Source: a virus
IMG/VR virus record: IMGVR_UViG_3300045988_046933
Span: 1-64,000 of that record
DNA length: 64,000 bases
Direction: 5' to 3' (one strand)
Position 1 is the stretch's first letter. The number at the start of each line of letters is the position of its first letter. The position numbers and the translations under genes are program-made. The notes beneath the pieces are model-generated. The model saw only the letters and a list, made by a program, of their open reading frames with translations, did no database searches and was not told the DNA's origin. Below, one piece after another: positions 3,774 through 42,697 of this stretch.

Positions 3774-3784
3774 AATATAAAAAC

Positions 3785-8170: not shown

Positions 8171-8171
8171 T

Positions 8172-8417: not shown

Positions 8418-8889
8418 ATATGTAGATACATTAGTGGGTTTTGCAGAAATTCCTGATGAGATAACTTTATGTATTAATGTAAGTAACTGCCCTTGTCATT
8501 GCGAAGGTTGTCATTCTCCTTATCTTGCAGAAGATATAGGAGAACCTCTTGATTTACAACACTTGACCAGCCTTATAGATAGTAATAAAGGTATAACTTG
8601 TGTATGTATTATGGGAGGTGATGCTAATCCAAGTGAAGTGGATGATATTGCACAGGATATTAAAGAATATTATCCTAATCTTAAAGTAGGATGGTATAGT
8701 GGCAGAGATTATATTAGTGAAGATATTAATCTAGAGAATTTTGATTATATTAAGTATGGTCATTATGATAAGGATAAAGGACCTCTTAATAGCAAAACAA
8801 CTAATCAAGTAATGCTTGAAATAAGTGTTGTACATAATAGAATATTTAAAAAAGATATTACGTCTAAATTTCAGAATGTTATGTATTAG
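8410..8889 (+). CDS. nrdG: anaerobic RNR activating enzyme (radical SAM)
   Basis: SNCPCHCEGCHSP contains CxxxCxxC. The size (159 aa) and the position next to nrdD fit NrdG. Confidence 0.8.
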   Translation: MLKYVDTLVGFAEIPDEITLCINVSNCPCHCEGCHSPYLAEDIGEPLDLQHLTSLIDSNKGITCVCIMGGDANPSEVDDIAQDIKEYYPNLKVGWYSGRDYISEDINLENFDYIKYGHYDKDKGPLNSKTTNQVMLEISVVHNRIFKKDITSKFQNVMY

Positions 8890-25477: not shown

Positions 25478-28400
25478 ATGAGTAATAGTTGTTCAATTAT
25501 TGGTCATGTCAAAAACTCTAAAGGTGAAGTGGTTGAAAGCAGGTTATGGAATGACCTGCTTCACCACCTCTCTGATAGAGGTTTGACAAAGGAGTTTTAC
25601 AGAGTTGGCACTGATAAAAACTTCCTAGACAAAGTTAGAGATAAAGCCAAATTTGATGAAAATGGTGAGATAACATTTAACTCACTAAGAAAACTTGCCA
25701 AGATAGATGTTAAGCAAGAAAAGCTACTATCAACTCTAAATAAAGATATTGGTAGTGGATTAATGGAGTATAATGATGCCTTAGGAAAACTTACAAGTTT
25801 TAATAGAGATAGCCAATTTAATGATGAATATATGGCTACTATTAAGAAGGTAGGTAATCAGTATGAACTATCAGTAGTTCCTAAAACTAATGCTAATCAA
25901 GCTGCTCTTGAGCAAGAAATTGCAAATAGGACTCTTAGAGACCGTCTAATGTATCATCTGAATAAAGCAGGAGTTTCTGTTGAGTTCTTTAATAATGATG
26001 ATAAGGTAGATGGAAGATATAGTACTGTAAATGCAAAGAAAGCTGCTGATGGAATGTATAATCTTATTAGGGTTGCTCATGGAGAGCACATTACTCCTGT
26101 ATTAGCAGAAGAGGCAGGTCACTTTGCAGTAGCATCTCTAGGCAATAGTCCATTAGTAGAAAGACTTACTAATCTTCTCACTCCAGATGTACAAGAAAAG
26201 ATATTTGGAGAAGAGTATAGTAGTAAAGTTATGGGTGCAAATAGTAAAAGAGAAACTGCTGGGCATCTTGTTGGTCAAGCTATAATGGATGAAGTGGATA
26301 AGACTACTCCTTGGGGAAGACTTGCTGATAGAGTTGTTAGTCTTGCAAAAAAGGTATTCTATTCATTCAAAGGTAATGATATTGCTAAAGCAACTATAGA
26401 AGCAGAGGATATTGCTAGGAGGATTGCAAGAGATTTTATGTCTGACAATCCACAAGGCAACATTGATAATGCTCTTGAAATAAGAGAAACCCTGTATAGT
26501 GCTAATAGTTCCCTTAATACAAAGGTATTTAGAACTGTTGTTAATAATTTAGCTTTAACAGCTGCTAAGCTTAAAGCCATAAGTAATGATGCTCTTACAG
26601 CCAAAGTAAGTGCCATATTAGGTGTAGCAGAGTCAGGAAGATTAACTACAATTAATGCTGCTTCTAATACTACTTTATCTGATAATATGGCACTTGATGG
26701 AATAGCAGAAGCTCTATCAATGGTAAGTGATATGATAGGACAAGGCAAGGAAATTAATAATCTATTGGATTCTGTTGATTTTCTTAACACTGCTGATTTC
26801 TATAATAATATGTCAGATAATGGTAGAAAACTTAGACAAGTTCATACTTTTGTAAGTGCAAGTCTTAATCTACAAAGATTAGTCACTGAAGCTATAAAGG
26901 TATTGCCAGGTAAAGAATCACTAACAGGAGATGTTGGTAATATACAAGTTACAGACTCTGTTGGTAATATTCAAACAATAGATTTGACTAAGGTAGTAAG
27001 AGAACTTAGTGATGCTAATGAATATTTGGTATCAGAGTTAATGACAAAGGAAAAGCAATTTTTTCTTAAATTCTGTGAAAGTACTTTAGGCTCTAAATAT
27101 GTATATAGAGCATCTAAAGTTATATGGAATATGAAATATCAAAAAAAGAATTCTGAAGGAAAAACAAGAAGAATATTTTTACAGAAAGGTGGAAGAGTAG
27201 ACTTAAGCTCTGTACTAGAAAGTATGGAGAGTGACATTAATATGTTTGAAAGATTTTTAGGTTCTATGTCTAATAATCCTGATATTATAGGTCAAATTGC
27301 AGATAAAGCTACTAAGATGGCTAATAGGCAAGCTGATAACCTGACTAATCTTGCTTGGGATGAACTTAGAGTTCTAGAAAAGAGATTTAATGCTATTGAA
27401 GGAGTAAAGCAGTCAGACCTTTTTGAAAGATTTGATGATGGAACTCTTACTGGAAATATAATTTCAGAGTATCATTGGGGGGAATACGAGAGAGATTGGA
27501 AAGAATTTAAAGATGCTGAATTTGAAAATTTCAAGAAAAGTATTCCTAATATAGATGACCTTACAGAGTTTGAGAAAGCTCTAAGATGGGACACATATTT
27601 TAGACCTCTAGCTAAGGATTGGCATAAAGCAAATAGTGTGTGGAGTAATGTTGATGGAAAATACATTCCTAATGACCAATATAAAAATTATGATTTTGAT
27701 AGGTTAATGCAGTCTCATCAAGGGCTTAAAAGCTGGTATAATGACTTTATGACTCTGAAATCTGATTTAGATGCTAGATTACCTGAAGGTAGTACATTGG
27801 CAGTAAGAATGCCTCAATTCAAAGGTACTTTTACTAATATTGTCAGAAATCAGAATAGTGGAATTAGTAAGGCAATAGGTAGTGCTCTAAGAAGTAAACT
27901 AAGAGATACATTCTGTGAAAGCAGTGAAGATACTGATTTTGGTAGTGACCAAACATATAATTCTGAGGAGGAGGAAAGATTTGCTAATACTCTAGCCCAT
28001 GAGAAGGAAAAGATACATAGGCTTCCTATTTATGGTGTGAATAAACTGCAAAATATGAATGAACTTTCTACAGATATATTTCATTCTACCCTAGCTTATG
28101 CTGGCATGGCTAATACCTATTTAGCAATGAATCAAGTTGTAGATACTCTTGAAGTTGGTAGGGAAGTTTTGTCTGAAAGAAAAGTAGGAGGTGACAAGTC
28201 TGAAAAAGAAAGAACCAAGGAAGAAGGTACTTCTAAAGCATATAATAGATACTTGAAATTTCTAGATAAACAAGTCTATGGTGTCAGTTCTAGTAAAACT
28301 AAGATATTTAAGGGTATAATAGTTGAGAAAGTTATTTCTGCTTTATCTAACTTTGCTTCTAAATATTTCTTGGGTGGTAATGTTGTAGGTGGTACTGTTA

Positions 28401-29890
28401 ATACTATGACTGGTTTTAATGAGATATTCAAGGAAGCAATAGCAGCTGAATATTTCAATCTGAAAGAGTTTGGTATGGCAAATAAACTATATTTTAGCAG
28501 CTTTGGAAAGAATTGGTGGAACTATGGTAAAGAGTTTAAAGAAGATAAAGTAAACCTTTTCATAAGGCATTTTAATGTATTAGGAGAGAGCAGAACTAAA
28601 CAAAGAGATTGGCATACTGTTAATGCTAAGTCTAGGAGGCTCTATAATATGTTTAATGAAAGCATATTCTTACCATATAAGTCAGGAGACCATTATATGC
28701 AATCTATATCATACTTGGCAAGTGCATATAAAACTAAAGTATATGATGCAAGTGGTAAGAGAATATCCTTATGGGAAGCTTATCAAGTTGTAGATAATAA
28801 GGATACTCAAGGTAATAAAGGTGGTAAAACATTAGCTCTTAATGGCACTTTCTATAAGAATAAAGAAGGAGCAAAAGAATATAAGTTAATTACATCTATA
28901 TTATCTCAATTGCAACAAAATTCAGCAAGTGCTGGACCATTTGGAGCAATAATACATCTTACTCAAGAACAACAGGATTATCTCAATAGAAAAGGCTATA
29001 ATATAGCAAATACTGAAAATACTATACATTCATTGGAAGATGATGCTTATAACTTAACATGGAATATTGATGATGAATCAGCTTTTATGGATAAGTGTAG
29101 AGAAATTAACAATAGAATGCATGGTATCTATAATAATCAAGATAAGGTTGCTTTTCAACAGAATTGGTTTGGTAATGCTGTCTTAGCTATGAGAGGTTAT
29201 GCTCTTGGTATGATTGAAAGAAGGTATGCACCTGGTCATTATAGTGTTGCCTTAGGACATGATGTAGAAGGCTCTCTTAATACTCTTGGTAAAGTTATTT
29301 GGAATGGTTTTACTGATAAAGGTGGTTTTATGATGACCATGAGAGCAATATGTCTACCTATGACAAAAAGAGCTAAACTTGATATGTATAGAGCAGGATT
29401 TTCTGAGAACCAAGTTGCTAATATGAGAAGAAACTTTGGTGATGCTTTATTAATCAGTCTACTAGTATTACTGAAAGCTCTAACAGCTAAGGGAGATGGT
29501 GATGATGACGATGATGATGAAGATAATCAGGTTGCAGGTATTCTCTATTACTTTGCAAACAGATTAAATAGGGAGCAACAAGCATATAATACTCCTATGG
29601 GATTATGGACTGAATCAACTACTATTACTGATTTAACTCCTGTTGGTATGTCAGCACTTGTTGATATAACTAAAATGGGTATACAGTTTGGAGGTCTTCC
29701 ATTTGCTGATGAAGACGACTCTTATTTCTATTACCAATCTTCTAAAGAAGATAGATATGATGAAGGAGATGCAAAGGCTTATGTTCATTTCTGGAGAATG
29801 TTTCCATATCTTAGAAGTGTATATACATTACAACAACCTTATGAAGCAGCCAAATCATTTGATTATGGTCAGAACATGAGAGCAAGATAA
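25478..29890 (+). CDS. giant virion/ejected protein (1470 aa), function unknown
   Basis: It is coupled 10 nt behind the RNAP gene. It contains hydrophobic LLISLLVLLKALTA followed by GDGDDDDDDEDN. No catalytic motif was accepted. Confidence 0.6.
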   Translation: MSNSCSIIGHVKNSKGEVVESRLWNDLLHHLSDRGLTKEFYRVGTDKNFLDKVRDKAKFDENGEITFNSLRKLAKIDVKQEKLLSTLNKDIGSGLMEYNDALGKLTSFNRDSQFNDEYMATIKKVGNQYELSVVPKTNANQAALEQEIANRTLRDRLMYHLNKAGVSVEFFNNDDKVDGRYSTVNAKKAADGMYNLIRVAHGEHITPVLAEEAGHFAVASLGNSPLVERLTNLLTPDVQEKIFGEEYSSKVMGANSKRETAGHLVGQAIMDEVDKTTPWGRLADRVVSLAKKVFYSFKGNDIAKATIEAEDIARRIARDFMSDNPQGNIDNALEIRETLYSANSSLNTKVFRTVVNNLALTAAKLKAISNDALTAKVSAILGVAESGRLTTINAASNTTLSDNMALDGIAEALSMVSDMIGQGKEINNLLDSVDFLNTADFYNNMSDNGRKLRQVHTFVSASLNLQRLVTEAIKVLPGKESLTGDVGNIQVTDSVGNIQTIDLTKVVRELSDANEYLVSELMTKEKQFFLKFCESTLGSKYVYRASKVIWNMKYQKKNSEGKTRRIFLQKGGRVDLSSVLESMESDINMFERFLGSMSNNPDIIGQIADKATKMANRQADNLTNLAWDELRVLEKRFNAIEGVKQSDLFERFDDGTLTGNIISEYHWGEYERDWKEFKDAEFENFKKSIPNIDDLTEFEKALRWDTYFRPLAKDWHKANSVWSNVDGKYIPNDQYKNYDFDRLMQSHQGLKSWYNDFMTLKSDLDARLPEGSTLAVRMPQFKGTFTNIVRNQNSGISKAIGSALRSKLRDTFCESSEDTDFGSDQTYNSEEEERFANTLAHEKEKIHRLPIYGVNKLQNMNELSTDIFHSTLAYAGMANTYLAMNQVVDTLEVGREVLSERKVGGDKSEKERTKEEGTSKAYNRYLKFLDKQVYGVSSSKTKIFKGIIVEKVISALSNFASKYFLGGNVVGGTVNTMTGFNEIFKEAIAAEYFNLKEFGMANKLYFSSFGKNWWNYGKEFKEDKVNLFIRHFNVLGESRTKQRDWHTVNAKSRRLYNMFNESIFLPYKSGDHYMQSISYLASAYKTKVYDASGKRISLWEAYQVVDNKDTQGNKGGKTLALNGTFYKNKEGAKEYKLITSILSQLQQNSASAGPFGAIIHLTQEQQDYLNRKGYNIANTENTIHSLEDDAYNLTWNIDDESAFMDKCREINNRMHGIYNNQDKVAFQQNWFGNAVLAMRGYALGMIERRYAPGHYSVALGHDVEGSLNTLGKVIWNGFTDKGGFMMTMRAICLPMTKRAKLDMYRAGFSENQVANMRRNFGDALLISLLVLLKALTAKGDGDDDDDDEDNQVAGILYYFANRLNREQQAYNTPMGLWTESTTITDLTPVGMSALVDITKMGIQFGGLPFADEDDSYFYYQSSKEDRYDEGDAKAYVHFWRMFPYLRSVYTLQQPYEAAKSFDYGQNMRAR

Positions 29891-29903
29891 TAACTATAAA
29901 GAT

Positions 29904-29946
29904 AAAAGGGTAGAGAGGTTAATCCTCCCTACCCTTTCTTTTTTTT
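29904..29946. terminator. bidirectional rho-independent terminator at the convergence point of the two blocks
   Basis: AAGGGTAGAGAGG (29906-29918) pairs with CCTCCCTACCCTT (29924-29936) with one mismatch. The loop is TTAAT. TCTTTTTTTT follows on the plus strand and TTTTATCTTTAT follows on the minus strand. Confidence 0.8.
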
Positions 29947-29954
29947 CAAAAGCT

Positions 29955-32900
29955 TTATAATTTTAAGCATTTTAGTTTATGCTCCATTTCTTCATCTTCA
30001 AGTGAAGACCAAGAAGTCTCATTAAAACCTTGCATTTCAATTCCTTCTCTTTGTTCCTGAGTTAAATTATTCCATTGGTATTCCTCTGGTACAGGTGTAG
30101 ACCTAGTTGTAATATCCATATTGAAATTATTTAGTTCAATAGAATCTACTCCAAACATATCCCCTAAATAACTATCATTAAATTCAGTTCCTAAAATAGG
30201 GTCTACAGTTTCAGTTGAAGACTCTGAAGGTATAGCTTCTGTTGGTCTAGCTTCATCATTGGTCTCTGCTTTGACAGCATTTTCAACCTCACCAAACATT
30301 GCTCTTTCTTCATTTGTCATTTTCTCCCAAACTATATGAGGTTCTGTATAATTTACTGCAATAATAGGTTGTAATTCAGGGTTTGCTCCTGTGTAATTTT
30401 TACCATCAATAAGTAATTGATTAGGTTTTTCAGGAGATACTGAGTAATCTGCTGAACCATTCTTCCAACCTGATGGAGGTGGGTATTCAACACCAATAGG
30501 AATTAAGTTAAGTGATTTAACTTGTATTCCATATTTACTTTCTAAAAACTTCTTATATAATGATAGCTGTCTTGAATACTTCTCTTGTTTATGTTGGTCT
30601 ATACCACTTCTATTTGTCTTCATATCAAAGATAAAGAAGTTTCCATTTCCATCATAAGCAAGTAAGTCAAGTGTACCTGCAACATCTACTGTATGTATCT
30701 TACCATTTGAATCCAATACATCTAATGAACCTGTAACTGTTACATCTCTTGGAATTATTGTAAGACCATTTGATATAAAGTTATTTCTAAGACCCATTAA
30801 CTCTTCTCTAAACTTTTGTAAAGCTTCTTCAGTAGCATTAGGATATTTTTCTGATAATTCTGTTACAACATTATTTGATACTTTATCTTGGAATGTATTG
30901 TTTACTGGATTATATCCTTTAGTAAAGTCTCTTATTGTTAAATGATTAAAGTCTTCTAAAGTAAGATTATCTAAATCTTCTTTACTCCATGTACCAAAGG
31001 TTTCTCCTAGAGTTTTCCAAATATCTAATAACCAATCTTTAAGTTTACTAATAATATTAGATTGTCCCTTTTTATTAGCTAACTCTTTGAGTAAGGCTTC
31101 CCCTTCTGTTCCTGTAAGTCTTGCATGAACTTCAGAAGCAATTAAATTATCTAACTTCTTTCCATTTATGCCTAACTGTTGCCAAGCTTTACCATAATGT
31201 TCACTATTTAGAATTTCATTCCACAAAGTTGTTTGCTTCATTAATTCTACACCTCTATTCCACAACTTTGAATTTTTCTGTTGTACTATTCTATCCCAAA
31301 GATGAGTATATTCATGTATAGGATGTTCAGGAGAAATCTTAGTTTCATCAAGATAAACATTACCTTCTTTATCTACAAAGCCATAAACTTCTCCTTGAGG
31401 AGTTGTATAAGTAGTTATATCATCATTAGTTCTGGAGAATGTTCCTACATTGTCTGTAGCTGATTTAATTTGATTGGGTGCTATAAAACTATAAGAAGTT
31501 CCTCCTTTTTCTGCTTTATTTTCATATTTTGTACCATCATATCCTAAAGAAAGCATTAAGTCTCTTAATTCTGAATTAGATATTCCTCTAAGTGAAGAAT
31601 ATTTATCTCTAGAAATAATACCTTGTTTATATAATTCTGATAGCATAGAGCTTACAGTTTCATGTACAAAATCAGGAGTTTCTAATGGATTTCCTATATT
31701 AAGAAATAAAGCAAATTGAGTGCCTTTAATTTTATTAGCAGTTTCTTGTGTACCTACATGACCAAAGGGTTCTGATGTCCAAGGCATAATCCTTGATTTA
31801 TGGTCCATATCAAATATACCATTAAATTCAAATGGTGTATTATGATAAACAACTAAAGGCTCACCATTTTCATCAACTACTTTAGAAGCTTCTGAAGGAT
31901 TATTTTCCCAATCACCAAACCAATCTTTAAAAGCTTTAGTTCTAACTTGAAGCCATTGTCTTTCTGTAAGATTAGTAGGCTTGCCATTAGGAGCTTTCAT
32001 AAAAGTACCATCTGCTATAGCCCTTTTCTTAATTTCATCCATTTCTTTTTGGACTTCAGGACTCTCTGTAGCTTGTTGAACTGATTGCAAATTATGAGTT
32101 CTTAGAAATTCCTGCATTCCTCTACTACCAGAAACTGATAATCCTATATTTTGTAAATGATTCCAAAGTTGAGTAGCAATTGGAGAGGTTGTAATACTAT
32201 CTAGTTTTCCAGCAAAAAAGTCTCTAACAAATTCATCAAATCCTGTGCCTATATTAGTAGAAGGTACAACCCAAGGACTATTAGGGTCAAATCTTTCTCC
32301 AGCTCTTTCATCAGCATTAATCATTGATGTAACTCTAGCTAAGAACTTGCCTGTTCTAGTATCTCTATAACCAGAATCATCTGCTAATTTTTCAATATGT
32401 TTTGAATCATCTTCTATCTGAGCTGCTATACTAGCAGCTTTTTCTCTTGCAGGATTAGTAGGAGTACTAGGCTTACCATCAAGAACTACACCAGTATCAG
32501 TAACTATAGCATTACCTGATTTTACCTGACCTTCTGCAATAGTGGGAGTAGTAATAGGCTGTTGAGGTTGTGCATTTACTGCATTAGCAGTTTCTGTAAA
32601 TGCAGGAGTGCCATCAGCTTTAAATGGATTTTGAACTGCAATACCTTGTATTCTATAATTAAAAGTTGTAGCAGCAGCTCCTAATATACCATCCTCATAT
32701 ATATCACTAATATTATCAGCAGCAGCCCTACTTTCAGATGTTTTTTCAGCATCAGAATATAGAACATTCCATTTAGCAAATGAGTCATTAGAGTTAGCCA
32801 TTCTAACTTTTCCACTATCATCTAGTATCAAGTTTCTGATGAAATCATCTTTAAAATCTTTAATATCCTGCTCCGTCATTCCACTATTAAATGTAGCTAA

Positions 32901-35900
32901 TGGAATTACCTCGGAGGTATTAGTATTTACAAGACTTAAATCCATTATTCTATTATCACCATCAACTTCAGATGTAGGAGTTATTCTATATTCCCACCCA
33001 TCTTTTATAGGAATATTAATGAAATTATCAATCTTTTTTTGAAGATTACTAGCCATAGTTTGCAATGCTTCAGCAGTTGCTTCTGTAGGTACTACTTGTC
33101 CATCAATTTCTTCATAGACTAAATCATCTGAATTAAAACTTTTAACAAAAGTTTCTAATGCTTTAGCAGCTCTAGATGTTCTACTATTGAAGTTTACAAT
33201 ATCTCCATCTCTAGCTTCATCTTCAAAGATATTATCAGAATTTCTAGCAGTACTTTCGTTAATAGGACTTACAAATATTTCTATTTGATTAAATCTTCCA
33301 TTCAAGGTTGGTTGATTAAACACTAATGCTTTTCTACCACCTATCATCTTAGTTCCAAGTCTTTTTAAGAAGTTTCTCTTTGCCTTCTGATATGCAGGAT
33401 TTCTTCTTCTTTGCTTCTTATCTTGTGACTCTAGTGAAGTTCTTTCATCTTGATTTAGGTCATTTATTGCAACATCAATAACATTATTTCTACCTCTATA
33501 ATTTATATCTGCTGAATAAGCTTTTGGCTTTCCATAAGCTTTAGTTACAATAGGCTTACCATTAATAGATATTAATTGAGTTCCAGTATTACTTTGAGCA
33601 GCATTCCTAATAGGAGCCATGTGTGTAGAACCTGCACTTCCTAAGTGATTAGTTGAAGCCATCACACTAATAGGCTGATATTTTTTATCCCCAATAACAA
33701 CAGGACCATTCTTAGATTCTACCACTGCAATAATTGGCATATATACTCCAGGATTATAGGTGTATCCATTGGATTCCATATCTTGCTTTACTACATTAGA
33801 AAATTCTTCATCTGTGATAAAGAATATATCTGGATTACTATCTAATATTCCATTTCTTAAAGCTTCTTCTATATTATACTTCTCATAGTATTTTATAGTA
33901 GGACTATTAGGAAATCTTTGTCTAATGTTATCAATGTTTACACTAGCTATAAAAGACGAGCTATTGTTTGCAGTAGGATACATATTATAGTTAGAGTTCA
34001 ACTGTCTATTAGTATTATCTAACTGCTGCCTTTTTTTATCAAAAAGAGGTGACTTAGATTTCTTTTCCTCTGTTACAGATTGTTCAGAAACTTTAGCTGC
34101 CTTAACCTTTGCAGCTATCTGCCTTAATAAATCAGCTCTTGGGTCTGTTCCATCTTCAGAGTTAGTCTCTCTTGTATTAGCTGAGGATATAAGAGCATCT
34201 ACAAAGTCTTCTACATTTTCAAATGAATTTGTACTTAAACTTTCAATAAATTGTCTTACATCATCTTTTACAATAAATGCTTTATCAGGTTGATTTTTAG
34301 CTACATTAAGAGCTATCTCTGCTGCTTTAGCAACATCTTCATTACTATTATCAGCAAAAGCTTGTATTATTGGATTTCTTCCTTCAGTACTAGTAGTATT
34401 ATTAGTAGGCTGATTACCTACTGTTTCAGTTTGTGCTGTTCCAATAGGTATATCTTCATTACTAATTACTGAACCATTTTTATCAATATAACCACCTTCA
34501 GGAGTACTACTTCCTGCTATATCAAAGATACTCTTAGTCTTAGTTTCTGTTGCTCCCTTTTGTACTACTGGCTCTGGATTAGCAGTAGGAGCAGACTGTT
34601 CTGGTGTAGTAGGAGTTACTTCTATAGGAGCTTCATTAGCTTCTCTTTGAGCATTCTCCTTATTGTAAGTAGCCATTACATCATTAAAGTTCTGTATAGC
34701 TTCTCCAATACTTGTAAAGGCTGTTTGTTCTGCTTCAGGTATAGTAGAATTAACTTCTTCCACATATTTTCTGAACTCAGATACACCATTTTCATCTACT
34801 GCTGACAGAGCATTTACTACAGCTTGATTATCATTAAAGTCAATTCCTTTATCAGATAAGTAAGTTATAGTATGAGCAAACATTTCTTTATCATTATCTG
34901 ACATGTTTTTGTGATTATCAGAGTCAGAAACTTGCTCTATAAGGTCTTGAAGCATTTGTCTCTCTTGACTATACCTTTCAAAGTTAGCATTATCCTTATT
35001 TCTGAAAGCTCTTGTAATTAATGATTGCTCTCTAAATGAACTTTCATTATACATTTTGTCCATTTCTCTAGCAAAAGTAGCATAATCTTGAATATTATTC
35101 ATTGCTTGGTACTTTCTCCTAGAGGCTATATCAGCAGCAGATTGTCTAGCATTATAGACATAGTTATTGAAACTATCTGGGTCACTTAATATAGCTTGAT
35201 ACTGAGCATTAAATGTGTCAATAGAGTTCTTAATTCTTCCAGCATCTATTATCTTATCAAGAAAATTTTCATCCTGTGCAGTTCCTTGATTGACAAGATT
35301 ATCTATTACAGCTTGCTGTTCTTCACTATAGAAAGGCTTCTCTTCAGCCTTAACAGCATCAAGTTCTTTCTGAGCTTTAGATATTTCTACATCTAGCTTT
35401 TGTACTTGTTTATTATGTCCCTTCTTTACTCTACCATTGTCTTTTATATATTTTGATTTCTGTTCATTAAGAGACTCCAGTCTAGCATTAAGTTCATCAA
35501 CTCTTCTATTATATTCTTCTCTGCCACCATGAGTAGCTACATAAGTCTTTTGCTTGCCCTTTCTAAGCATTATAGACCTAGATATGGGGTCAAGATTCAT
35601 AATTTCTTCTTCACTAAGAACTTCAGAAGTACCTTCTTCAATATCATTGATTGCATCAAGTCTTTTAAGTTCTTTCTCAAGGGATTTACTCTTAACTTTT
35701 TTATCCTTTAGGATATTCCTTTCATTGTCAGTAAGATTCTTCCTACTAGTAATATTCTTAATATCCTCATTAATAGAATTAAGGCTTTTCTGAATTTCAG
35801 CCTGTCTCTTTTTAGCTTCTGCAATAGAGTTATAAGCAGCTAAGATTTCTTTCTGTTTTGCACTTAATGCAGAACTATGCTCTACTGAATTTCCTATTTG

Positions 35901-38384
35901 AATATTAGCAAGCTCTTCTTTCAGCTTTTGTTCTCTCTGATGCCAATCTTTAAGCATCATTTGACCATATATAAGAGATTGTTTAGTATCCTCATCAACA
36001 TTACCAAGTAATTTATCTACTCTATCCGATTCTTGTTGAATAATATCAAGAGTAGATAACATCTTATTTGCATTTGATTTTAAAGTTTTAAGAATTTCTT
36101 CATCACTTTGTTTTTCATCAGAGGTATTAGCATTATCCCTCATTGCAGATATATATTTTTCTGCTAGTTCTGAACCTTCTTCAAGGTTTGCAATCTCTGT
36201 AAGCTGATTAAGGTAAGTATCATAATATTGAGTACCTTGAAGCTTTTGTAACATAAAAGCATCACTAATAGTCTTACCTAAGGCACTATTTCTATAGCCA
36301 AATTCATCACTGCCAAGACCTGCATCACCCATAGATTTAGCCCAGTTAAAAGTTCCAACTAGACCATCAAATTTACTCTTATTGTCAGGGTCTCTAAGCC
36401 ATTCTTGTAATACTTGAGCAGTCTCTTCAGCTTGATGTTGTTGAATTTGATTATCTCTATGAGCTTGAAATAGACCACTTCTCCAAGGAGTAATTCTTCT
36501 AAGTCTCTCCCAATTAGATTCTAGTTCACCTTTTTCATTAAGACCTCTACCAAAATAAGTAGTTTCTGCTTTACCATCAACTATTCTACCTGTTCTAGTT
36601 TTGTGACCTAATGAAGGAGTTCCCATTATAGAAGATATAGCTCCATATATACCAGATTTAATAGTTTCTTTATCCAGAGTAGAACCTGTAAATGCTGTCC
36701 AAGCAGCTCCCCAATCACTTGAGAAATTATCTCCTACTGCTGCACTACCATCACCTTTATATTTATTGTCAATAAACTGGTGTATATTGTTTTCTGCACC
36801 ACCTCTCATAGTAGCATCAGAAATACTCTGCATATACTCTTCGCCAAATTCACCAAGAGGCTCCTTAATTAGATTCCAAGCTTTCTTACCTATGCCAAAT
36901 CTAGGAGTTACAGTTGTTGTAGCTCCACTACCTGTAATAGTAAAGTTAGGTCTAGGTTGTGCCCAACCAAATAATTTAGACTTAGATAGTGCATTTCTAA
37001 CAGAAGGTGCTTGTAAACCTGCTTTCAAGGTACTATTTACCATACCATTGATAAGAGAGTTTACATAAAAATTATTTATTCCTGCTTTTGTTGCAGCATA
37101 TTCAACTTGCTTTAGAGACTCCTCATATTTAGGAGAGTATTCATCCCATACTTGCTGATAAATCTGGTTAATATCATATAGTTTACCAGTCTTCTTATCT
37201 TTGTATTTAACTACTTGTCCAGTATTATCAGCACCATCTTTTATCATTACCTGGTCATATTGTCCAAGTCTTCTATTAACTTCAGCACCTACCTCTTGTT
37301 GATGCATCTGTTGTACAGCTCTTATACCATCTTCTTCTGCTTGTTGCTTGGTATTAAGACCCTCAGAAAGACCTTCCATAGTACCTACCATACCTGGTAT
37401 AATAAACTTATTAGTAAAGTTCTCTGCTTTCTGTAACTTAGTAAGAGCACTTGTTAATGCTTCACCTGTCTTAATTGCTTTAGTTGCTGTACCTAAGCCT
37501 TTAAATAATATAGAAGCAAGCTTAGCTTCTCCTACTCCTACAAACATTGATGCAAGAGTGAAACCACCTGATTGTAGTGCTACCCAAGGACTAGCTGAAC
37601 TTAGTAAACTTTCTTGTTGGTCTCTAGTCTCAGCAATTTGTAAAGCTGACAATCCTGTTTCTTTCTGCTTTGCTATGTTCTCAGGAAGTATAGCTCCATA
37701 TTGAACTATATCATTACCATATCTAGTCCATTCATTATCCATCACAGAGTTCATAAAGTTATCCCAACCATCAAGGTCTGGATTATCTTTATAAGTTCCA
37801 TCAAAATAATTTATAGCACCTTTCACTGAACCTGCTAAACCAACTATAGCACCAGCAGCAGATGCTCCTAATCCTCTAAAACCATTCCATGCTTGCTCAT
37901 ACCAAGGTTGATTCTTAGCTACATTATCCTGTATTGTGCCATTAAGATAATTATTAGCTTGCTCTGTGCCATAAGCATCATTTATAGCTTGATACTGTGC
38001 AGCTATCTCTGCCCAATCTTGGTCATTAAAACTGATTTTATCAGAGTTCTTAAATTCTTGATACCAATTAGATACTTTACTAGCTAGATTTCTAATATCT
38101 AAGGATGCTTTATTATTTCCACCCCAACCAACATGTAATTTATCTTGGTAATCCTTTAGAAATTTATTGTAAGATAATTCCCTTTGAGCAAGATTAGATG
38201 CCATATTCTGTGCCATCACTGTCTTAGGGTCAATATAACTACTATCAATATTTACATTGAAATTATATGATGGAGCAGTAGCAGTACCTCCACTTATTTG
38301 GTTAAGGTACTGCTTATCTGCTGTACTTCTATCAGAAGCTTTTAGTCCTCTTAGACTACTATTATCAAAATTTAATACTGGCAT
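29955..38384 (-). CDS. giant polyvalent virion/ejected protein. It has an N-terminal Gly/Ala-hydrophobic and coiled-coil region. The C-terminus carries an ART-PolyVal-like module, an HExxH metallopeptidase module and a PD-(D/E)XK nuclease module.
   Basis: 2809-aa uninterrupted ORF. KAFKDWFGDWENN..VVDENGEPLVVYHNTPF...NQIKSATDNVGTFS spans about nt 31413-31937. PIHEYTHLWD has HExxH at 31302-31316. LDLLAYDGNGNFFIFDMKT...YSRQLSLYKKFL spans about nt 30470-30800. Confidence 0.7.
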   Translation of the reverse strand: MPVLNFDNSSLRGLKASDRSTADKQYLNQISGGTATAPSYNFNVNIDSSYIDPKTVMAQNMASNLAQRELSYNKFLKDYQDKLHVGWGGNNKASLDIRNLASKVSNWYQEFKNSDKISFNDQDWAEIAAQYQAINDAYGTEQANNYLNGTIQDNVAKNQPWYEQAWNGFRGLGASAAGAIVGLAGSVKGAINYFDGTYKDNPDLDGWDNFMNSVMDNEWTRYGNDIVQYGAILPENIAKQKETGLSALQIAETRDQQESLLSSASPWVALQSGGFTLASMFVGVGEAKLASILFKGLGTATKAIKTGEALTSALTKLQKAENFTNKFIIPGMVGTMEGLSEGLNTKQQAEEDGIRAVQQMHQQEVGAEVNRRLGQYDQVMIKDGADNTGQVVKYKDKKTGKLYDINQIYQQVWDEYSPKYEESLKQVEYAATKAGINNFYVNSLINGMVNSTLKAGLQAPSVRNALSKSKLFGWAQPRPNFTITGSGATTTVTPRFGIGKKAWNLIKEPLGEFGEEYMQSISDATMRGGAENNIHQFIDNKYKGDGSAAVGDNFSSDWGAAWTAFTGSTLDKETIKSGIYGAISSIMGTPSLGHKTRTGRIVDGKAETTYFGRGLNEKGELESNWERLRRITPWRSGLFQAHRDNQIQQHQAEETAQVLQEWLRDPDNKSKFDGLVGTFNWAKSMGDAGLGSDEFGYRNSALGKTISDAFMLQKLQGTQYYDTYLNQLTEIANLEEGSELAEKYISAMRDNANTSDEKQSDEEILKTLKSNANKMLSTLDIIQQESDRVDKLLGNVDEDTKQSLIYGQMMLKDWHQREQKLKEELANIQIGNSVEHSSALSAKQKEILAAYNSIAEAKKRQAEIQKSLNSINEDIKNITSRKNLTDNERNILKDKKVKSKSLEKELKRLDAINDIEEGTSEVLSEEEIMNLDPISRSIMLRKGKQKTYVATHGGREEYNRRVDELNARLESLNEQKSKYIKDNGRVKKGHNKQVQKLDVEISKAQKELDAVKAEEKPFYSEEQQAVIDNLVNQGTAQDENFLDKIIDAGRIKNSIDTFNAQYQAILSDPDSFNNYVYNARQSAADIASRRKYQAMNNIQDYATFAREMDKMYNESSFREQSLITRAFRNKDNANFERYSQERQMLQDLIEQVSDSDNHKNMSDNDKEMFAHTITYLSDKGIDFNDNQAVVNALSAVDENGVSEFRKYVEEVNSTIPEAEQTAFTSIGEAIQNFNDVMATYNKENAQREANEAPIEVTPTTPEQSAPTANPEPVVQKGATETKTKSIFDIAGSSTPEGGYIDKNGSVISNEDIPIGTAQTETVGNQPTNNTTSTEGRNPIIQAFADNSNEDVAKAAEIALNVAKNQPDKAFIVKDDVRQFIESLSTNSFENVEDFVDALISSANTRETNSEDGTDPRADLLRQIAAKVKAAKVSEQSVTEEKKSKSPLFDKKRQQLDNTNRQLNSNYNMYPTANNSSSFIASVNIDNIRQRFPNSPTIKYYEKYNIEEALRNGILDSNPDIFFITDEEFSNVVKQDMESNGYTYNPGVYMPIIAVVESKNGPVVIGDKKYQPISVMASTNHLGSAGSTHMAPIRNAAQSNTGTQLISINGKPIVTKAYGKPKAYSADINYRGRNNVIDVAINDLNQDERTSLESQDKKQRRRNPAYQKAKRNFLKRLGTKMIGGRKALVFNQPTLNGRFNQIEIFVSPINESTARNSDNIFEDEARDGDIVNFNSRTSRAAKALETFVKSFNSDDLVYEEIDGQVVPTEATAEALQTMASNLQKKIDNFINIPIKDGWEYRITPTSEVDGDNRIMDLSLVNTNTSEVIPLATFNSGMTEQDIKDFKDDFIRNLILDDSGKVRMANSNDSFAKWNVLYSDAEKTSESRAAADNISDIYEDGILGAAATTFNYRIQGIAVQNPFKADGTPAFTETANAVNAQPQQPITTPTIAEGQVKSGNAIVTDTGVVLDGKPSTPTNPAREKAASIAAQIEDDSKHIEKLADDSGYRDTRTGKFLARVTSMINADERAGERFDPNSPWVVPSTNIGTGFDEFVRDFFAGKLDSITTSPIATQLWNHLQNIGLSVSGSRGMQEFLRTHNLQSVQQATESPEVQKEMDEIKKRAIADGTFMKAPNGKPTNLTERQWLQVRTKAFKDWFGDWENNPSEASKVVDENGEPLVVYHNTPFEFNGIFDMDHKSRIMPWTSEPFGHVGTQETANKIKGTQFALFLNIGNPLETPDFVHETVSSMLSELYKQGIISRDKYSSLRGISNSELRDLMLSLGYDGTKYENKAEKGGTSYSFIAPNQIKSATDNVGTFSRTNDDITTYTTPQGEVYGFVDKEGNVYLDETKISPEHPIHEYTHLWDRIVQQKNSKLWNRGVELMKQTTLWNEILNSEHYGKAWQQLGINGKKLDNLIASEVHARLTGTEGEALLKELANKKGQSNIISKLKDWLLDIWKTLGETFGTWSKEDLDNLTLEDFNHLTIRDFTKGYNPVNNTFQDKVSNNVVTELSEKYPNATEEALQKFREELMGLRNNFISNGLTIIPRDVTVTGSLDVLDSNGKIHTVDVAGTLDLLAYDGNGNFFIFDMKTNRSGIDQHKQEKYSRQLSLYKKFLESKYGIQVKSLNLIPIGVEYPPPSGWKNGSADYSVSPEKPNQLLIDGKNYTGANPELQPIIAVNYTEPHIVWEKMTNEERAMFGEVENAVKAETNDEARPTEAIPSESSTETVDPILGTEFNDSYLGDMFGVDSIELNNFNMDITTRSTPVPEEYQWNNLTQEQREGIEMQGFNETSWSSLEDEEMEHKLKCLKL

Positions 38385-38387
38385 ATT

Positions 38388-39971
38388 TTATTTATATTCA
38401 TTGTTTTGGAATATTATATAACTATCCTTTGGATTATCTCTACCAAATAGTTCAGAAGATTTTCCAGGTACCTTATATATCACATAAGGTTGACCAGGCT
38501 GCACGCCTGCATCTATTGCAGCTTGTGAAATACTGGCTTGTACATCAGGGGGGAGATTTGCAAATGCTGCATCAGGCATATATTCAAGATTCTTTGTTGG
38601 ATACTCTATATTACCCCAAGAGTTTACAGCTTCACTTTCTGTACTTCCAAATAGTGCTCTTTTTCCTCCTATAGTCTTGTAGCCTTTGGAAGGATTCTTG
38701 GCATCTGCCAATATAGGTGCTCCTGTTTTTTCTGATATAGCAAGTCTTCTATTATCTCCCATACCTAAATCATTTCCTTTCTTACCCCATTGGTAGCTTC
38801 CGTTATGTGGGATAACTGCCATTACAGGAGTAAGTCCTTGAGCTTTTATTTTGTCTAAGTCAGTTGCTGATGATAGGGTTTTAGGAGTAGCTCCCGCAAC
38901 GTTTAACTTTGTATCAGAATCATCTTTTCCGTTTTTATAACTTTGAGTTCCTACCTTTGAAATATTTCCATTTTGTCCATGCATTACTCTACCATTTTTA
39001 TCAACTATCATTCCAATCTTAGGGTCATAGTAACTACCTGTACCCTTTCCATCAGCACTAATTATTTCTCTGGGTGCAGTTTGTTCTCTTTGAAATTTTT
39101 GTGTAGCTTCTCTTTCGCTCTTTTGGAACTCTTGAGCTGCCTTCTGTCTAGCCATAGCATGAGCATTACTTAAATTTTCTTGTGCTCTCCAGTTATTAAC
39201 TAACTGAACTTCATCTTGACCTACAGCATTCCATAATCCACGTCTTGCATAATCATATGCTTGTTGTATAGTAGACTTACTCCCCCAATCTTTTACTCCT
39301 ATAGCATCTATGGCAGACTCTACTAAATTAGTCAGTACAGGAGAAGCGTCTGGATTATTCATAACAGCTGCAAGAACTGCTTGACTACTGAAACCTCTTT
39401 GTTTAACATACTCATAATAGTCATCTCCTACAAGTTTTCTCATCCCTTCAGGGTCATCTCTGAACTGCTTAGCTAAAGCAGAAGCACTTGCTGCTACTTC
39501 TGAAGTCAAAGCTTTCTTACTATAACTGTTACCATAAGTAACATCAGGATTCTCCATTAATTCATCAATACTAATATCTGCTGCCTTTCTCTGCCAAAAT
39601 CTTGGGTCTTGCAGCTCCAGTTTTCTTTGTTCTTCCATCAGTTCTTTCTTTCTAGTAGCTGCTTTACCTATAGGCATTATATCACTTGCATATCTTCTTT
39701 TTAAGTTAAGGAGTTGATTTCCTGTTTGCAAAGTCATTCCCCTACTAAAATCATCTGCTGCTTTATTTAGAGCATCTTCATATTTATGAAACATTTCATA
39801 AGCTTTAGGGCTTTGTGTTCTGTTAGCAACATCCTTCCACTGTTCTGTTTGTACAGCTAATGAATTATAATCTTCTTCTGCTTTATCATAAGCTTCTTTA
39901 TATATTGCCATAGGCTTAAGAAGTTCATCAAAAGAGAAAGGTCTAAATTTACTTGTAATTCTTATATTCAT
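38388..39971 (-). CDS. virion/ejected protein, function unknown
   Basis: 527-aa ORF, separated by 3 nt from both neighbours in the same unit. Confidence 0.6.
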   Translation of the reverse strand: MNIRITSKFRPFSFDELLKPMAIYKEAYDKAEEDYNSLAVQTEQWKDVANRTQSPKAYEMFHKYEDALNKAADDFSRGMTLQTGNQLLNLKRRYASDIMPIGKAATRKKELMEEQRKLELQDPRFWQRKAADISIDELMENPDVTYGNSYSKKALTSEVAASASALAKQFRDDPEGMRKLVGDDYYEYVKQRGFSSQAVLAAVMNNPDASPVLTNLVESAIDAIGVKDWGSKSTIQQAYDYARRGLWNAVGQDEVQLVNNWRAQENLSNAHAMARQKAAQEFQKSEREATQKFQREQTAPREIISADGKGTGSYYDPKIGMIVDKNGRVMHGQNGNISKVGTQSYKNGKDDSDTKLNVAGATPKTLSSATDLDKIKAQGLTPVMAVIPHNGSYQWGKKGNDLGMGDNRRLAISEKTGAPILADAKNPSKGYKTIGGKRALFGSTESEAVNSWGNIEYPTKNLEYMPDAAFANLPPDVQASISQAAIDAGVQPGQPYVIYKVPGKSSELFGRDNPKDSYIIFQNNEYK

Positions 39972-39973
39972 AA

Positions 39974-42592
39974 TTATCTTCTTCTTTTATTTTTTCTTCT
40001 ACTGCCTGGTGTAGCTATCTCTTCTGCTAAGGGGTGTCCTGCTGACAATCCTCCTAATGCTCCAGATTCAGCTAATCTTCTTATTATATTCATTGATTTA
40101 TTTTCATATCCCATATCTCCTAATGCTGATAAGAATTCAGATATATTAGCAGCTCTATTAGCTTCAGCAGCATCTTTAATACCCTGTCTCATTTGGGCAG
40201 CAGTAGTTAAACCTGTAAGCCTTCTACCTATAGCATTAGCATAAGCTCCTTGGTTAGCTGTATCAGCTTGTAAAGCACCTTGTGAATTATATTGATTAGT
40301 AGCTCTATTAAATTCCTCTACTTGTGCTCTTCTAGCAAAGTTTTCTTTGTCTGCTGCTATCTTAGCTTCTCCTAATCTACCTATAGTATTATAATCAGAA
40401 GCTAAAATTCCAGCTATTGCTGCTCCAGTATTTCCAGCACTTTGATTAGCTATAGCTCTTCTTGAAGCTGCTGCATCAGCATCCATTCTATTAAGAAGAT
40501 AATCAGTATCAAAAGGTCTGTACTTTAAATAATTTCCTAATCTCTCAAATCCTACAGGTTTATAATCAGCTCTACTAGCATCTTCAATTCTAGCTGCATT
40601 TTCATATTCAGGATTATTAGTAAGACCTAAAGCATCTGATATTACAGCTGCACCTAAGCCTATAGCAGGAGCATATCTAAGAGCTTCATTAGACCTTCCT
40701 AAATATAAAGGAGGTTCTTCTTTTCCTGCATCTTTAATTAAGTCAGGAGTTTTTATTCTATCATTTAGATTATTAGGAAATAGACCATTAGGCATTAAAC
40801 TGTTTGCTTTTCCTCTTTTATACTGTGCAAACATATCTCCTACATGCATTATTCCTGTATTCTTATCTACTGCCAGTTTTTTAGCAGTATTAAATAAATT
40901 ATCTGAAATAGCCCAATCATCTATAGTATTTCTATTTTCATACCATTCAGGAGAAGTATCTATAAAGTTTTGAATTGCTGCATATCTAGGAGACTTTTTC
41001 TGTTCTTCAGTTGCATTATCATAGAAGTTAAATTGGTCCTTCAAATGCTTTTTGAACATATCTACATTATACACATTATTAATAAAATCTGTATACTCTT
41101 TATTATATTCTCCTTTATCATTCATCCAAAATGGTTTGTCATAACCATAATAATTAGGTACTCCTTTATAAGGATTTATAGCCGTAGGCATCCAAGTATT
41201 ATTAAATATTGTAGGACTACTTGGATTTGGCTGCTCTAAAAGATTATTCCATAAAGGAGTCTCTCCTAAATTATTCCAATTAAAGTCTGTTTCTTTTGTA
41301 TCTCCGCCTGTTTTAAACTTATTTATCCTACCACCATAAGCAGATTTATTTTCATTTATTCTAATAGATTCATTAGCTCTTTCTGCTTCTTGTGCATTTG
41401 CTAAATCAGCTAATACTTCCATTGCAGTGTCTCTGCTAATAGAGTCATTTGGTCTTTCTTCATAACTTTTAGTAAGATATTTAACTGCATCAGCAAATGT
41501 CATATTATCTCTTAATTTATATTTCTTTCTCACATCTTTAGGTACTTGTAGTCTATTACTATAGACATAATCATTAAATACTACTTCTCCTTGCTCAACT
41601 AAATTAGGAGTTCCTTCAGAATCTGCTCCCATAGGTACTCCTTCATAAGGATTATTTTCATGGGTATCTCCATTATCAATATAAGTTAAACCTGTCATAA
41701 AATCTGAACCATTAGTATTCAGATGTCCTCCAAAAGCATGTTTCCAATGAGAAGCATTCTGAGCAAAGATTGCTCTTTTCCTAGTTAATGGATTTTTACT
41801 ATGTGTTAATTCTTCTGTAGTCTTACCAGTTCTTTTCTTAGTAGCATTAAACTTTCCTCTATTTGCTGGATTAATATGTATACTTCCACCATCAGAGTAC
41901 TTATTTATAAAACCTCCTAGTGCTGCATAATTAGATTCTAAGGAGTTCAAAATACCTGTATTAATATTATCAGCATTTAGCTCTAGAGTATCTATAGCAT
42001 AATCATTAGCATCTCTCATTTCAGCTCTTAATCTTTTAGCTTTTTTAGCTACTTTATTTGAGAACCAACCATCATCACCTATATAACTATTAGAGAAATT
42101 AGCATTTCCTAATGCTAGGTTATTAGCCATATTAGCTAGAGTATCTGTACTATTAGCATCAGCTTGTAATCCTCTTAAATTGCTTATGGTACTTTCAGTT
42201 TTATTTATATTCTCTTCATTCCATTTAGCACCAAATGCTCTATTAACTAGACCACTTGCCACATTTGTTGCAGCACTTGCTACAGCTCCCCAAGGACCTG
42301 GAATAGCTCCAGCTACATTACTTAGTCCTCCAAGAATATTTCCTGCTTTACTACCATAACCTCCTCCAATAAGATTGCCAGCAGCACTACCAAGTGCTGA
42401 AGAAGCTGCTCCTATCATATTAGCAGCTCCTGTAGACATTCCCTTAAAGGCTCCTGTAGTAATATTACCATTCTTATCAGGATTGCCTGACAGAGTGTTA
42501 TATAGCTTATTTAAGCTTCCTCCAATATTATAATAATTATTTCTATAACTTAATAGTTTGTTATATCTTTTATTACCTATTTTATTGACCAT
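39974..42592 (-). CDS. virion/ejected protein with Gly/Ala-zipper regions and a basic C-terminal tail
   Basis: 872 aa. The N-terminus reads GAANMIGAASSALGSAAGNLIGGGYGSKAGNILGGLSNVAGAIPGPWGAVASAA. The C-terminus ends in PGSRRKNKRRR. Confidence 0.6.
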   Translation of the reverse strand: MVNKIGNKRYNKLLSYRNNYYNIGGSLNKLYNTLSGNPDKNGNITTGAFKGMSTGAANMIGAASSALGSAAGNLIGGGYGSKAGNILGGLSNVAGAIPGPWGAVASAATNVASGLVNRAFGAKWNEENINKTESTISNLRGLQADANSTDTLANMANNLALGNANFSNSYIGDDGWFSNKVAKKAKRLRAEMRDANDYAIDTLELNADNINTGILNSLESNYAALGGFINKYSDGGSIHINPANRGKFNATKKRTGKTTEELTHSKNPLTRKRAIFAQNASHWKHAFGGHLNTNGSDFMTGLTYIDNGDTHENNPYEGVPMGADSEGTPNLVEQGEVVFNDYVYSNRLQVPKDVRKKYKLRDNMTFADAVKYLTKSYEERPNDSISRDTAMEVLADLANAQEAERANESIRINENKSAYGGRINKFKTGGDTKETDFNWNNLGETPLWNNLLEQPNPSSPTIFNNTWMPTAINPYKGVPNYYGYDKPFWMNDKGEYNKEYTDFINNVYNVDMFKKHLKDQFNFYDNATEEQKKSPRYAAIQNFIDTSPEWYENRNTIDDWAISDNLFNTAKKLAVDKNTGIMHVGDMFAQYKRGKANSLMPNGLFPNNLNDRIKTPDLIKDAGKEEPPLYLGRSNEALRYAPAIGLGAAVISDALGLTNNPEYENAARIEDASRADYKPVGFERLGNYLKYRPFDTDYLLNRMDADAAASRRAIANQSAGNTGAAIAGILASDYNTIGRLGEAKIAADKENFARRAQVEEFNRATNQYNSQGALQADTANQGAYANAIGRRLTGLTTAAQMRQGIKDAAEANRAANISEFLSALGDMGYENKSMNIIRRLAESGALGGLSAGHPLAEEIATPGSRRKNKRRR

Positions 42593-42611: not shown

Positions 42612-42642
42612 CAAAGATAATTAAAATAAATGATTAAACAAA
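42612..42642 (-). promoter_or_regulatory. Bacteroidota-type promoter for the 872/527/2809-aa unit
   Basis: Minus strand: TTTG (42642-42639), a 19-nt spacer, then TATCTTTG (42619-12) followed by CAAA. It lies 20 nt upstream of the ATG at 42592. Confidence 0.6.
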
Positions 42643-42649
42643 GTTTATA

Positions 42650-42695
42650 AATACAAAAATAATAGGGACATAAGATTTCTCTTACATCCCTATTA
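42650..42695 (-). terminator. rho-independent terminator after the 1562-aa gene
   Basis: TAATAGGGA pairs with TCCCTATTA (42660-42668 / 42687-42695), with an inner TAAGA/TCTTA stem. TTATTTTTGT follows on the minus strand. Confidence 0.7.
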
Positions 42696-42697
42696 AA

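Follow-up and report, generated by a model that had tools for sequence, protein, structure and literature searches.

Among the phages of the human gut, crassviruses are the most abundant, and the role of their giant packaged proteins is largely obscure. Three such proteins of PhiCrAss001, gp47 (262.5 kDa), gp49 and gp50, were detected in virions by mass spectrometry and placed in the cargo zone of the capsid; gp47 was described as RNA polymerase (RNAP)-associated, and a membrane channel is expected from gp45 and gp46, not from gp47 (Bayfield et al. 2023, PMC10172136). In some crass phages the RNAP-associated proteins are fused with the polymerase (Drobysheva preprint), PDDEXK domains have been listed in proteins of the transcription block (Yutin et al. 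2021), and a zincin domain in orthologs of phi14:2 gp65 is on record. A second described system is that of the polyvalent proteins of phages and conjugative elements (Iyer et al. 2017, PMC5512222), among them the virion RNA polymerases (vRNAP) of N4-like phages, in which an ADP-ribosyltransferase (ART) domain and an HExxH peptidase-like domain are fused to the polymerase; that study mentions neither crAss phages nor PD-(D/E)XK domains. Here we analyzed a stretch of 64,000 nt, positions 1 to 64,000 of the IMG/VR virus record IMGVR_UViG_3300045988_046933 (the whole stretch is called the window, and coordinates refer to it). The window is from a crAss-like phage and contains an open reading frame (ORF) of 2809 aa (29955..38384, minus strand), which by synteny and sequence is the positional ortholog of the gene for PhiCrAss001 gp47, an RNAP-associated virion cargo protein.

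A preliminary description of the window, made from the sequence alone, had reported this ORF as the third of a unit on one strand, after ORFs of 872 and 527 aa, and the ORF proved real. The same description had placed three modules in series in the C-terminal third of the protein: an ART-like module, an HExxH peptidase and a PD-(D/E)XK nuclease. The serial arrangement was wrong. The ART and HExxH modules form one block of 436 aa (residues 2068-2503; 30876..32183, minus strand), an in-frame insertion of 1308 nt nested inside the nuclease domain. The insertion separates an N-terminal part of the nuclease (residues 1975-2067; 32184..32462, minus strand), with RVTS and PSTNIGTGFDEF motifs, from its C-terminal core (residues 2504-2700; 30285..30875, minus strand), two parts which adjoin in nearly all homologs. 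Its position is directly behind the conserved helix PSTNIGTGFDEFVRDFF, the counterpart of the first motif in this family of nucleases. The gene probably encodes a packaged giant protein of the gp47 type, made up of an N-terminal body, the nuclease and the inserted ART-HExxH cassette.

Comparison with close relatives showed the cassette to be a clean indel. Nucleotides 439-6200 and 7507-8430 of the gene align at 92% identity to a Logan contig (L005), leaving a clean gap of 1308 nt whose junctions share only a TC dinucleotide. Four IMG/VR genomes (L008-L011; 93-94% identity) have the same empty site. In Kolpuevirus, cr116_1 and IAS virus the sequences corresponding to query residues up to ~2065 and from ~2492 adjoin, and the two halves are contiguous in ~26 metagenomic nuclease homologs with the single exception of P0137. 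A scan of IMG/VR identified 78 nuclease loci; both halves could be placed in 76 of these, 74 of which had the empty site, and an ART or HExxH module was found at the site in none of the 76. The cassette allele was recovered in a protein-based scan from two independent metagenome contigs of ~96 and 100 kb (L086 and L087); L087 (ERZ1035027 NODE-32, 100 kb; ~92% nucleotide identity) covers both junctions, and L086 has the same architecture.

In more distant relatives the site is occupied by other inserts. Another crassvirus (L029; IMGVR_UViG_3300045988_031580, 6001-8460) has an in-frame insert of 1626 nt (542 aa) inside an intact ORF of 2934 aa, with a Walker-A-like GSGKT and a GS...DLD pattern (nucleotidyltransferase-like). 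The exception P0137 has an insert of ~148 aa (its residues 56-202) in this nuclease loop, and L079 one of 141 nt (47 aa). Pfam gave no match for the inserts of L029 and P0137, and the L079 insert likewise had no family match. These findings identify the cassette as a strain-variable accessory, which some close relatives carry and for which others have an empty site.

The insertion might be an assembly chimera, or a disabling insertion that killed the nuclease. Most relatives have the empty site, a large protein collection returned no near-identical protein over the left junction, and a search of viral and metagenome contigs for the exact 28-nt left junction found nothing, all of which would agree with an artefact. 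However, at precisely 436 codons the insert keeps the reading frame on either side; both junctions are present in L087, and the architecture recurs in L086; the proteins P0001 to P0003 cross the right junction; the site takes other in-frame inserts in intact giant ORFs, as in L029; and both halves of the nuclease keep their motifs and fold confidently in predicted models. We regard a chimeric or disabling insertion as very improbable.

Two variants of the locus were also noted. On an ENA scaffold (ERZ28613823; P0001, L006:362-2257) a stand-alone gene of 631 aa, 94% identical to the window and convergent with a gp49-like gene, consists of a new N-terminus of 124 aa followed by the last part of the ART, the HExxH module, the nuclease core and the tail. 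This suggests that the giant gene has been rearranged in some strains. In the Logan contig mentioned above (ERR10608883; L005:3273-10375, 92% identical) the gp47 ortholog is called as two ORFs, one of 942 and one of 1279 aa, separated by ~430 nt, even though its DNA runs colinear with that of the window gene. This could be due to a frameshift, a stop codon or recoding.

When residues 1975-2721 were aligned as a whole with MAFFT, the rows of insert-less nucleases were misaligned onto the cassette. For this reason separate nuclease-only and cassette-only alignments were used.

The assignment of a RecB/Cas4-like PD-(D/E)XK nuclease was confirmed at the level of sequence and model, since profile, conserved motifs and predicted fold agree. 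The motifs quoted in the preliminary description were in place; the extent was too short, as the N-terminal part (~1975-2067, motif GTGFDEF) had been missed. Residues 2516-2621 matched Pfam PDDEXK_1 marginally (22.6 bits; cut-off 22); in IAS virus the homologous domain reached 35.5 bits with PDDEXK_1, and many metagenomic homologs have precomputed PF12705 assignments. The C-terminal core contains D2547, D2573 (DLLAYD, residues 2573-2578), D2587-x-K2589 (FDMKT, 2586-2590) and Q2606xxxY2610 (QLSLY, 2606-2610). In the nuclease-only alignment these six residues are kept in 18-20 of 20 homologs, and D2573, D2587, K2589, Q2606 and Y2610 each in 19-20 of 20.

An AlphaFold 2 (AF2) model of residues 1975-2721, built from the nuclease-only alignment, had a predicted local distance difference test (pLDDT) score of 80-95 for residues 1975-2064 and of 85-97 for residues 2514-2694. 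The best 21 Foldseek matches of this model in the PDB were all nucleases of the RecB/Cas4/EXO5/AddAB/RecE type and included AdnAB, Cas4 SSO0001, human EXO5, the Argonaute-associated Cas4-family ACE1, AddAB, MGME1, SduA and RecE; for the leading matches (AdnAB, Cas4, EXO5, ACE1 and AddAB) the Foldseek probability was 0.94-0.98. A sequence search of the PDB with the nuclease profile gave just weak matches to AdnAB and EndoMS (E 0.6-1.3). No cysteine was found in residues 1975-2067 or 2504-2720, so that the domain lacks the iron-sulfur cluster of Cas4, AddB and EXO5.

The nuclease is present across the group with or without the cassette; the domain appears to be ancestral to the group, and its nuclease activity is a prediction. 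In IAS virus it is located in gp057 (L004:7426-12354), the protein after the polymerase gene, and not in the gp47-type protein, so that the domain has moved between giant proteins. Such a distribution could also be due to a nuclease, or perhaps a whole protein, that serves the DNA or the transcription of the phage itself and is no weapon against the host. End processing of the entering genome, recombination and the handling of promoter DNA for the virion RNA polymerase are possible roles. Conservation regardless of the cassette, the presence of the domain in a different RNAP-associated protein of IAS virus, the fusion with the polymerase in some phages and the listing among transcription-block proteins would all fit such a role; the strain-variable cassette and the company of polyvalent proteins, on the other hand, point to conflict functions, for the cassette at least. 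On balance a function confined to the phage's own DNA or transcription seems somewhat unlikely.

In one lineage (P0106 and P0092) the nuclease motifs are degenerate (VLLGYD, YGIKT and LLYSY), which suggests that catalysis was lost there. A 901-aa fragment of the empty-site allele (P0004) carries the NCBI label 'PD-(D/E)XK nuclease superfamily [Chlamydia trachomatis]'; this record is most likely phage contamination of a Chlamydia trachomatis assembly.

Within the cassette, residues 2171-2316 (31437..31874, minus strand) matched Pfam ART-PolyVal (PF18760) with an E-value of 4.7e-11 and 44.1 bits, against a cut-off of 31.2, over positions 1-140 of the 140 of the profile. This sequence match confirms the ART-PolyVal domain that had been recognized earlier by its motifs. 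The catalytic triad of the family is H-Y-D, with His on strand 1, Tyr on strand 2 and Asp on strand 5 (Iyer et al. 2017, PMC5512222). H2181, the last residue of the VVYH motif (residues 2178-2181), corresponds to the strand-1 His and is kept in 19 of 21 sequences of the cassette-only alignment; the NQIKSA motif occupies residues 2304-2309. Foldseek against BFVD gave 23 matches at E <= 1e-3, many of them to proteins annotated as ART-PolyVal, including proteins of the crAss phages cr271_1, cr116_1 and cr130_1. A sequence search of the PDB with the cassette profile returned a spurious match to a designed repeat only.

The WFGDW motif (residues 2155-2159) had been counted as part of the ART module. 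It lies outside the Pfam envelope and belongs to a separate APNG...WFGDWENN element (residues 2128-2162; 31899..32003, minus strand), which precedes the ART core and recurs in homologs. The APNG...WFGDWE element was found in 71 copies in 54 homologous proteins, up to three per protein, with the consensus APNGKxSNLTERQWLQVRTKAFKxWFGDWE; 16 of the 71 copies are followed by sequence other than the ART core. PHROG 30335 matched at residues 2124-2187. Possibly it marks another site of insertion or serves as a signal for processing. In L087 an extra block of ~447 nt (L087:3345-3791) is located in the N-terminal region of the ART, directly after the WFGDW element.

The HExxH module comprises residues 2326-2492 (30909..31409, minus strand), with the motif HEYTH at residues 2357-2361 (31302-31316). 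All 21 homologs have the putative metal-site residues H2357, E2358, H2361 and E2418, and 20 of them also have D2364, the sequences being otherwise 39-73% identical to the window copy. The AF2 model of the module (pLDDT 84-96) shows three short strands, then the HExxH helix and further helices; E2418 is likewise in a helix after the three strands. D2364 and E2418 match the signature of a widespread phage-type peptidase, in which an Asp follows HExxH by three residues and a Glu is located on a later helix (Iyer et al. 2017, PMC5512222). The module is found alone in many proteins, with Kinase-PolyVal, PBECR3, LPD3, NADAR and PIF1-type helicase domains; the only GenBank phage with it is Tenacibaculum phage Gundel_1.

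The sole studied protein linked to the module is N4 vRNAP. In an hhalign comparison with the HExxH region of the N4 vRNAP C-terminal domain (E 0.0015, probability 17%), GEVYGFV..NVYLDE..HPIHEYTHL of the window was paired with GNIYGWT..TIYLVS..TLIHELVHA. Pfam found no zincin family in either PhiCrAss001-type gp47 or N4 vRNAP. The sequence conservation and the model make a zincin-like metal site likely, and the putative peptidase function is unproven. The preliminary description had called the module MPTase-PolyVal-like. The motif, with HEYTH at exactly the coordinates given, the invariant metal site and the company of polyvalent proteins bear this out in part; the family assignment itself finds no support, since Pfam found no MPTase-PolyVal match and Foldseek no solved zincin, and profile and structure matches were what the description had itself named as the check. 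The other peptide motifs quoted are all present as well.

The position of the gene was compared with that of gp47. The window has ~30% G+C and contains two convergent gene blocks that meet near position 29,900. On the minus strand a muzzle gene (Pfam crAss_MUZ, E 9e-254) is followed by the genes for cargo protein 1 (872 aa, first of the unit; 39974..42592; Pfam crAss_CARG1, E 2e-50), cargo protein 2 (527 aa; 38388..39971; Pfam crAss_CARGO2, E 1.3e-82) and the 2809-aa protein. Convergent with these, on the plus strand, are the genes for a gp50-like virion RNA polymerase (2344 aa; 18433..25467), assigned by a DFDID motif and synteny, and for a gp49-like RNAP-associated protein (1470 aa; 25478..29890), assigned by synteny. 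The same order was found in Kolpuevirus and in one PhiCrAss001-type phage: the stabilization (muzzle) protein, two smaller genes and the giant gene, then two convergent giant genes annotated as RNA-polymerase subunit and putative RNA polymerase.

In a tblastn search of GenBank phages, the 2809-aa protein showed ~37% identity over 80% of its length in the Bacteroides phages DAC15 and DAC17, the Kolpuevirus 'frurule' and uncultured crAss phages belonging to the Steigviridae; these orthologs are labelled 'RNA-polymerase subunit' or hypothetical. BLASTP against PhiCrAss001-type gp47 returned E-values of 8e-12 for the nuclease core and 0.016 for the N-terminal Gly/Ala-rich region, and a weak alignment of the C-terminal tail (E 0.39). 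Orthology with gp47 was concluded from the same synteny together with the shared N-terminal region, nuclease and tail. Through this orthology, the virion delivery proposed in the preliminary description gains support from the detection of gp47 in PhiCrAss001 virions by mass spectrometry (PMC10172136): by analogy, the 2809-aa protein would be packaged in the capsid and ejected into the host.

The 2809-aa ORF was also considered as the RNA polymerase itself. This was rejected because it has no D-x-D-x-D motif; DFDID is located at residue 1442 of the 2344-aa neighbour and in no other ORF. This polymerase ORF had no sequence match in the PDB at E <= 0.01 although the structure of a crass virion polymerase (phi14:2 gp66) exists, indicating strong divergence of these proteins. 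A sequence search of the PDB with the whole 2809-aa protein gave nothing meaningful, NCBIfam and PADLOC searches gave no match, and no tRNA genes were found in the whole 64,000-nt window.

Several results weigh against the packaged three-layered enzyme proposed here. The E-values of the nuclease Foldseek matches are modest (2.5e-3 to 0.2, none at or below 1e-3), and the packing of the two nuclease halves could not be read from the AF2 output, which came without coordinates or predicted aligned error. In the ART, only the His of the triad can be placed; the positions of Tyr and Asp fall in a variable, poorly aligned stretch of low pLDDT (44-72 in the middle of the domain), and Foldseek of the cassette against the PDB found no solved ART. 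The HExxH module and its relatives matched no Pfam family even at E <= 10, MPTase-PolyVal included, and no precomputed PF18818 was present on the HExxH matches. The module gave nothing meaningful in a PDB sequence search and no solved zincin with Foldseek against the PDB (best E 0.73), and the hhalign probability with N4 vRNAP is low. Nor is the HExxH domain of N4 vRNAP itself known to act as a peptidase. Outside the nuclease, direct similarity to PhiCrAss001-type gp47 is weak.

The modules of the cassette may be no working enzymes: they could be structural or regulatory domains of the RNAP cargo complex, or decaying passengers. In N4 vRNAP, a C1 subdomain with HExxH is part of an autoinhibitory C-terminal domain that dampens polymerase activity, and HExxH is also known in non-peptidase enzymes (PMC13434306). 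The lack of Pfam or PDB support for a peptidase fold and the incompletely placed ART triad go in the same direction, and the degenerate motifs of the P0106/P0092 lineage suggest that loss of catalysis does occur in the family. The pattern of conservation in the cassette, however, fits selection on active sites: the five metal-site residues of the HExxH module (H, E, H, D and E) persist in 20-21 of the 21 otherwise diverged homologs and H2181 of the ART in all but two of its sequences, and the nuclease motifs of the window are intact. We consider inactive or purely structural modules rather improbable.

The packaged, ejected enzyme carrier is the reading that we prefer, and it could work as follows. 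The 2809-aa protein would be made late from the cargo operon and packaged as one of three giant RNAP-associated capsid proteins, which would be pushed through the tail into the Bacteroidales host before or with the DNA. It would have three layers: a lineage-conserved N-terminal body of ~1950 aa, a RecB/Cas4-like nuclease without iron-sulfur cysteines, and the 436-aa accessory cassette in the loop that follows the nuclease's initial conserved helix. After ejection, the nuclease may act on host DNA or on DNA ends at entry, the ART may modify a host protein or nucleic acid using NAD+, with T4 Alt as the usual model, and the HExxH module may cut the giant polypeptide to free the modules, or cut host proteins. 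We infer DNA cleavage, NAD+-dependent modification, and self-processing or cleavage of host proteins by analogy with the respective families, and the counter-defence toolkit suggested in the preliminary description would be one use of such activities.

The nuclease loop might further be a swap site for alternative effector cassettes among near-identical crassvirus strains, so that the injected enzymes vary by strain as the tips of polymorphic toxins do. The HExxH module could then excise the cassette after ejection. We put this forward as speculation that is unlikely to hold in full; if true, the swap site would adjust the range of Bacteroides strains or defence systems that a phage can overcome.

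The N-terminal two thirds of the protein are conserved among DAC15- and Kolpuevirus-type relatives and had no family match in Pfam, PHROGs or NCBIfam. The preliminary description had read them as an ejection or channel protein, with hydrophobic Gly/Ala stretches and very long Lys/Glu coiled coils. Two Gly/Ala-rich, moderately hydrophobic stretches are indeed present (residues 173-191 and 275-293; 37506..37868, minus strand), with a hydropathy of only 1.29 and 1.41 (mean Kyte-Doolittle over 19 residues), and the first of them aligns with residues 92-152 of PhiCrAss001-type gp47 in the BLASTP match mentioned above. The Lys/Glu enrichment (26%) had been overextended and is limited to about residues 801-1000. 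A transmembrane channel protein was rejected, as the hydropathy of both stretches is under the usual threshold; these two segments were the sole basis of the channel proposal, which finds no support, and the literature gives the channel to gp45 and gp46. At the other end, the C-terminal tail (residues 2766-2809; 29958..30089, minus strand) has a conserved W..L..EE.EH.L.C motif, which contains the only cysteine of the protein. Similar tails are present in the L029 protein and in P0137, and, to judge from the weak alignment, in PhiCrAss001-type gp47. The tail could be a packaging or targeting signal.

The preliminary description had also given the unit its own promoter and a terminator at the convergence point, and both signals are present. 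A Bacteroidetes-type promoter-like site, TTTG-N19-TATCTTTG (42612..42642, minus strand), lies within the 105 nt of intergenic sequence that precede the cargo 1 gene; its function is proposed from the sequence. The pattern TTTG-N19-TAnnTTTG occurs twice in the window, against 0.53 expected, the other copy being at 3387-3417 (plus strand), so that the case for a promoter is argued from position and not from count. Between the convergent genes is a terminator-like hairpin (29904..29938, minus strand) with 15 pairs, of which 7 are G-C, and a T-rich tail after it; in shuffled sequences the region had on average 0.1 such sites. A second hairpin with a T run (GGGATGTAAGAGAAATCTTATGTCCC TATTATTTTT) was observed at 42650-42700 (minus strand), between the muzzle gene and the promoter-like site, and may separate the muzzle gene from the cargo operon.

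Much of this has precedents: gp47-type cargo proteins (PMC10172136), polyvalent injected proteins (PMC5512222), crass zincin and PDDEXK domains (in phi14:2 gp65 orthologs and transcription-block proteins, respectively), ART-PolyVal labels in UniProt names of crAss proteins, and a GenBank crAss protein with HExxH and ART-PolyVal. A literature search found no paper pairing 'ART-PolyVal' with 'crAss' or 'polyvalent protein' with 'crAssphage'. New are this combination of domains, the nesting of the cassette within the nuclease, the variation between filled and empty sites among relatives of 92-94% identity, and the use of one site by other inserts as well. No new kind of system is revealed. The gp47-type protein appears as a carrier for exchangeable enzyme modules, by which near-identical strains differ in a whole ART-HExxH cassette; if the modules are active, early host takeover and host range at the level of strains would become open to concrete tests.

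Compared with PhiCrAss001 gp47, the protein shares its giant size, its position after the muzzle, cargo 1 and cargo 2 genes and convergent with gp49/gp50-type genes, the N-terminal Gly/Ala-rich region, the PD-(D/E)XK core and, weakly, the tail. It differs in that the nuclease of gp47 is contiguous, that neither ART-PolyVal nor HExxH was found in gp47 by Pfam or BLAST, and that identity outside the nuclease is very low. An equivalent giant protein is AXF52200.1 of crAssphage ctcc615 (Intestiviridae), annotated as 'putative RNAP associated protein fused to zincin protease'. It has an HExxH motif (residue 2105) and an ART-PolyVal domain 47% identical to that of the window; however, its order is HExxH and then ART, at the C-terminus and not within a nuclease. 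Its HExxH region was also tried as a relative of the window module and is unrelated (hhalign probability 0.7%).

The nuclease has the Foldseek fold and the D...D-x-K...QxxxY motif order of RecB/AddAB/AdnAB, Cas4 and EXO5; unlike these, it has no iron-sulfur cysteines, no helicase partner in the protein, and a 436-aa insert that splits it. Phage T4 Alt is likewise a packaged ART that enters with the DNA, and serves as functional model in Iyer et al. (PMC5512222); it belongs to the R-S-E clade and is a single-domain protein, whereas the ART of the window is of the H-Y-D (PolyVal) family. The likeness to polyvalent proteins lies in several unrelated enzyme-like domains in one giant polypeptide that would travel with the DNA, in an ART of the PolyVal family, and in an HExxH with an Asp three residues on and a Glu in a later helix. 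Unlike the N4-like examples, the window encodes its polymerase as a separate protein, and its cassette sits within another enzyme domain. With at least two domains of predicted disparate activity, and with delivery argued from the orthology to gp47, the 2809-aa protein would nevertheless be a polyvalent protein by the definition of Iyer et al. (PMC5512222).

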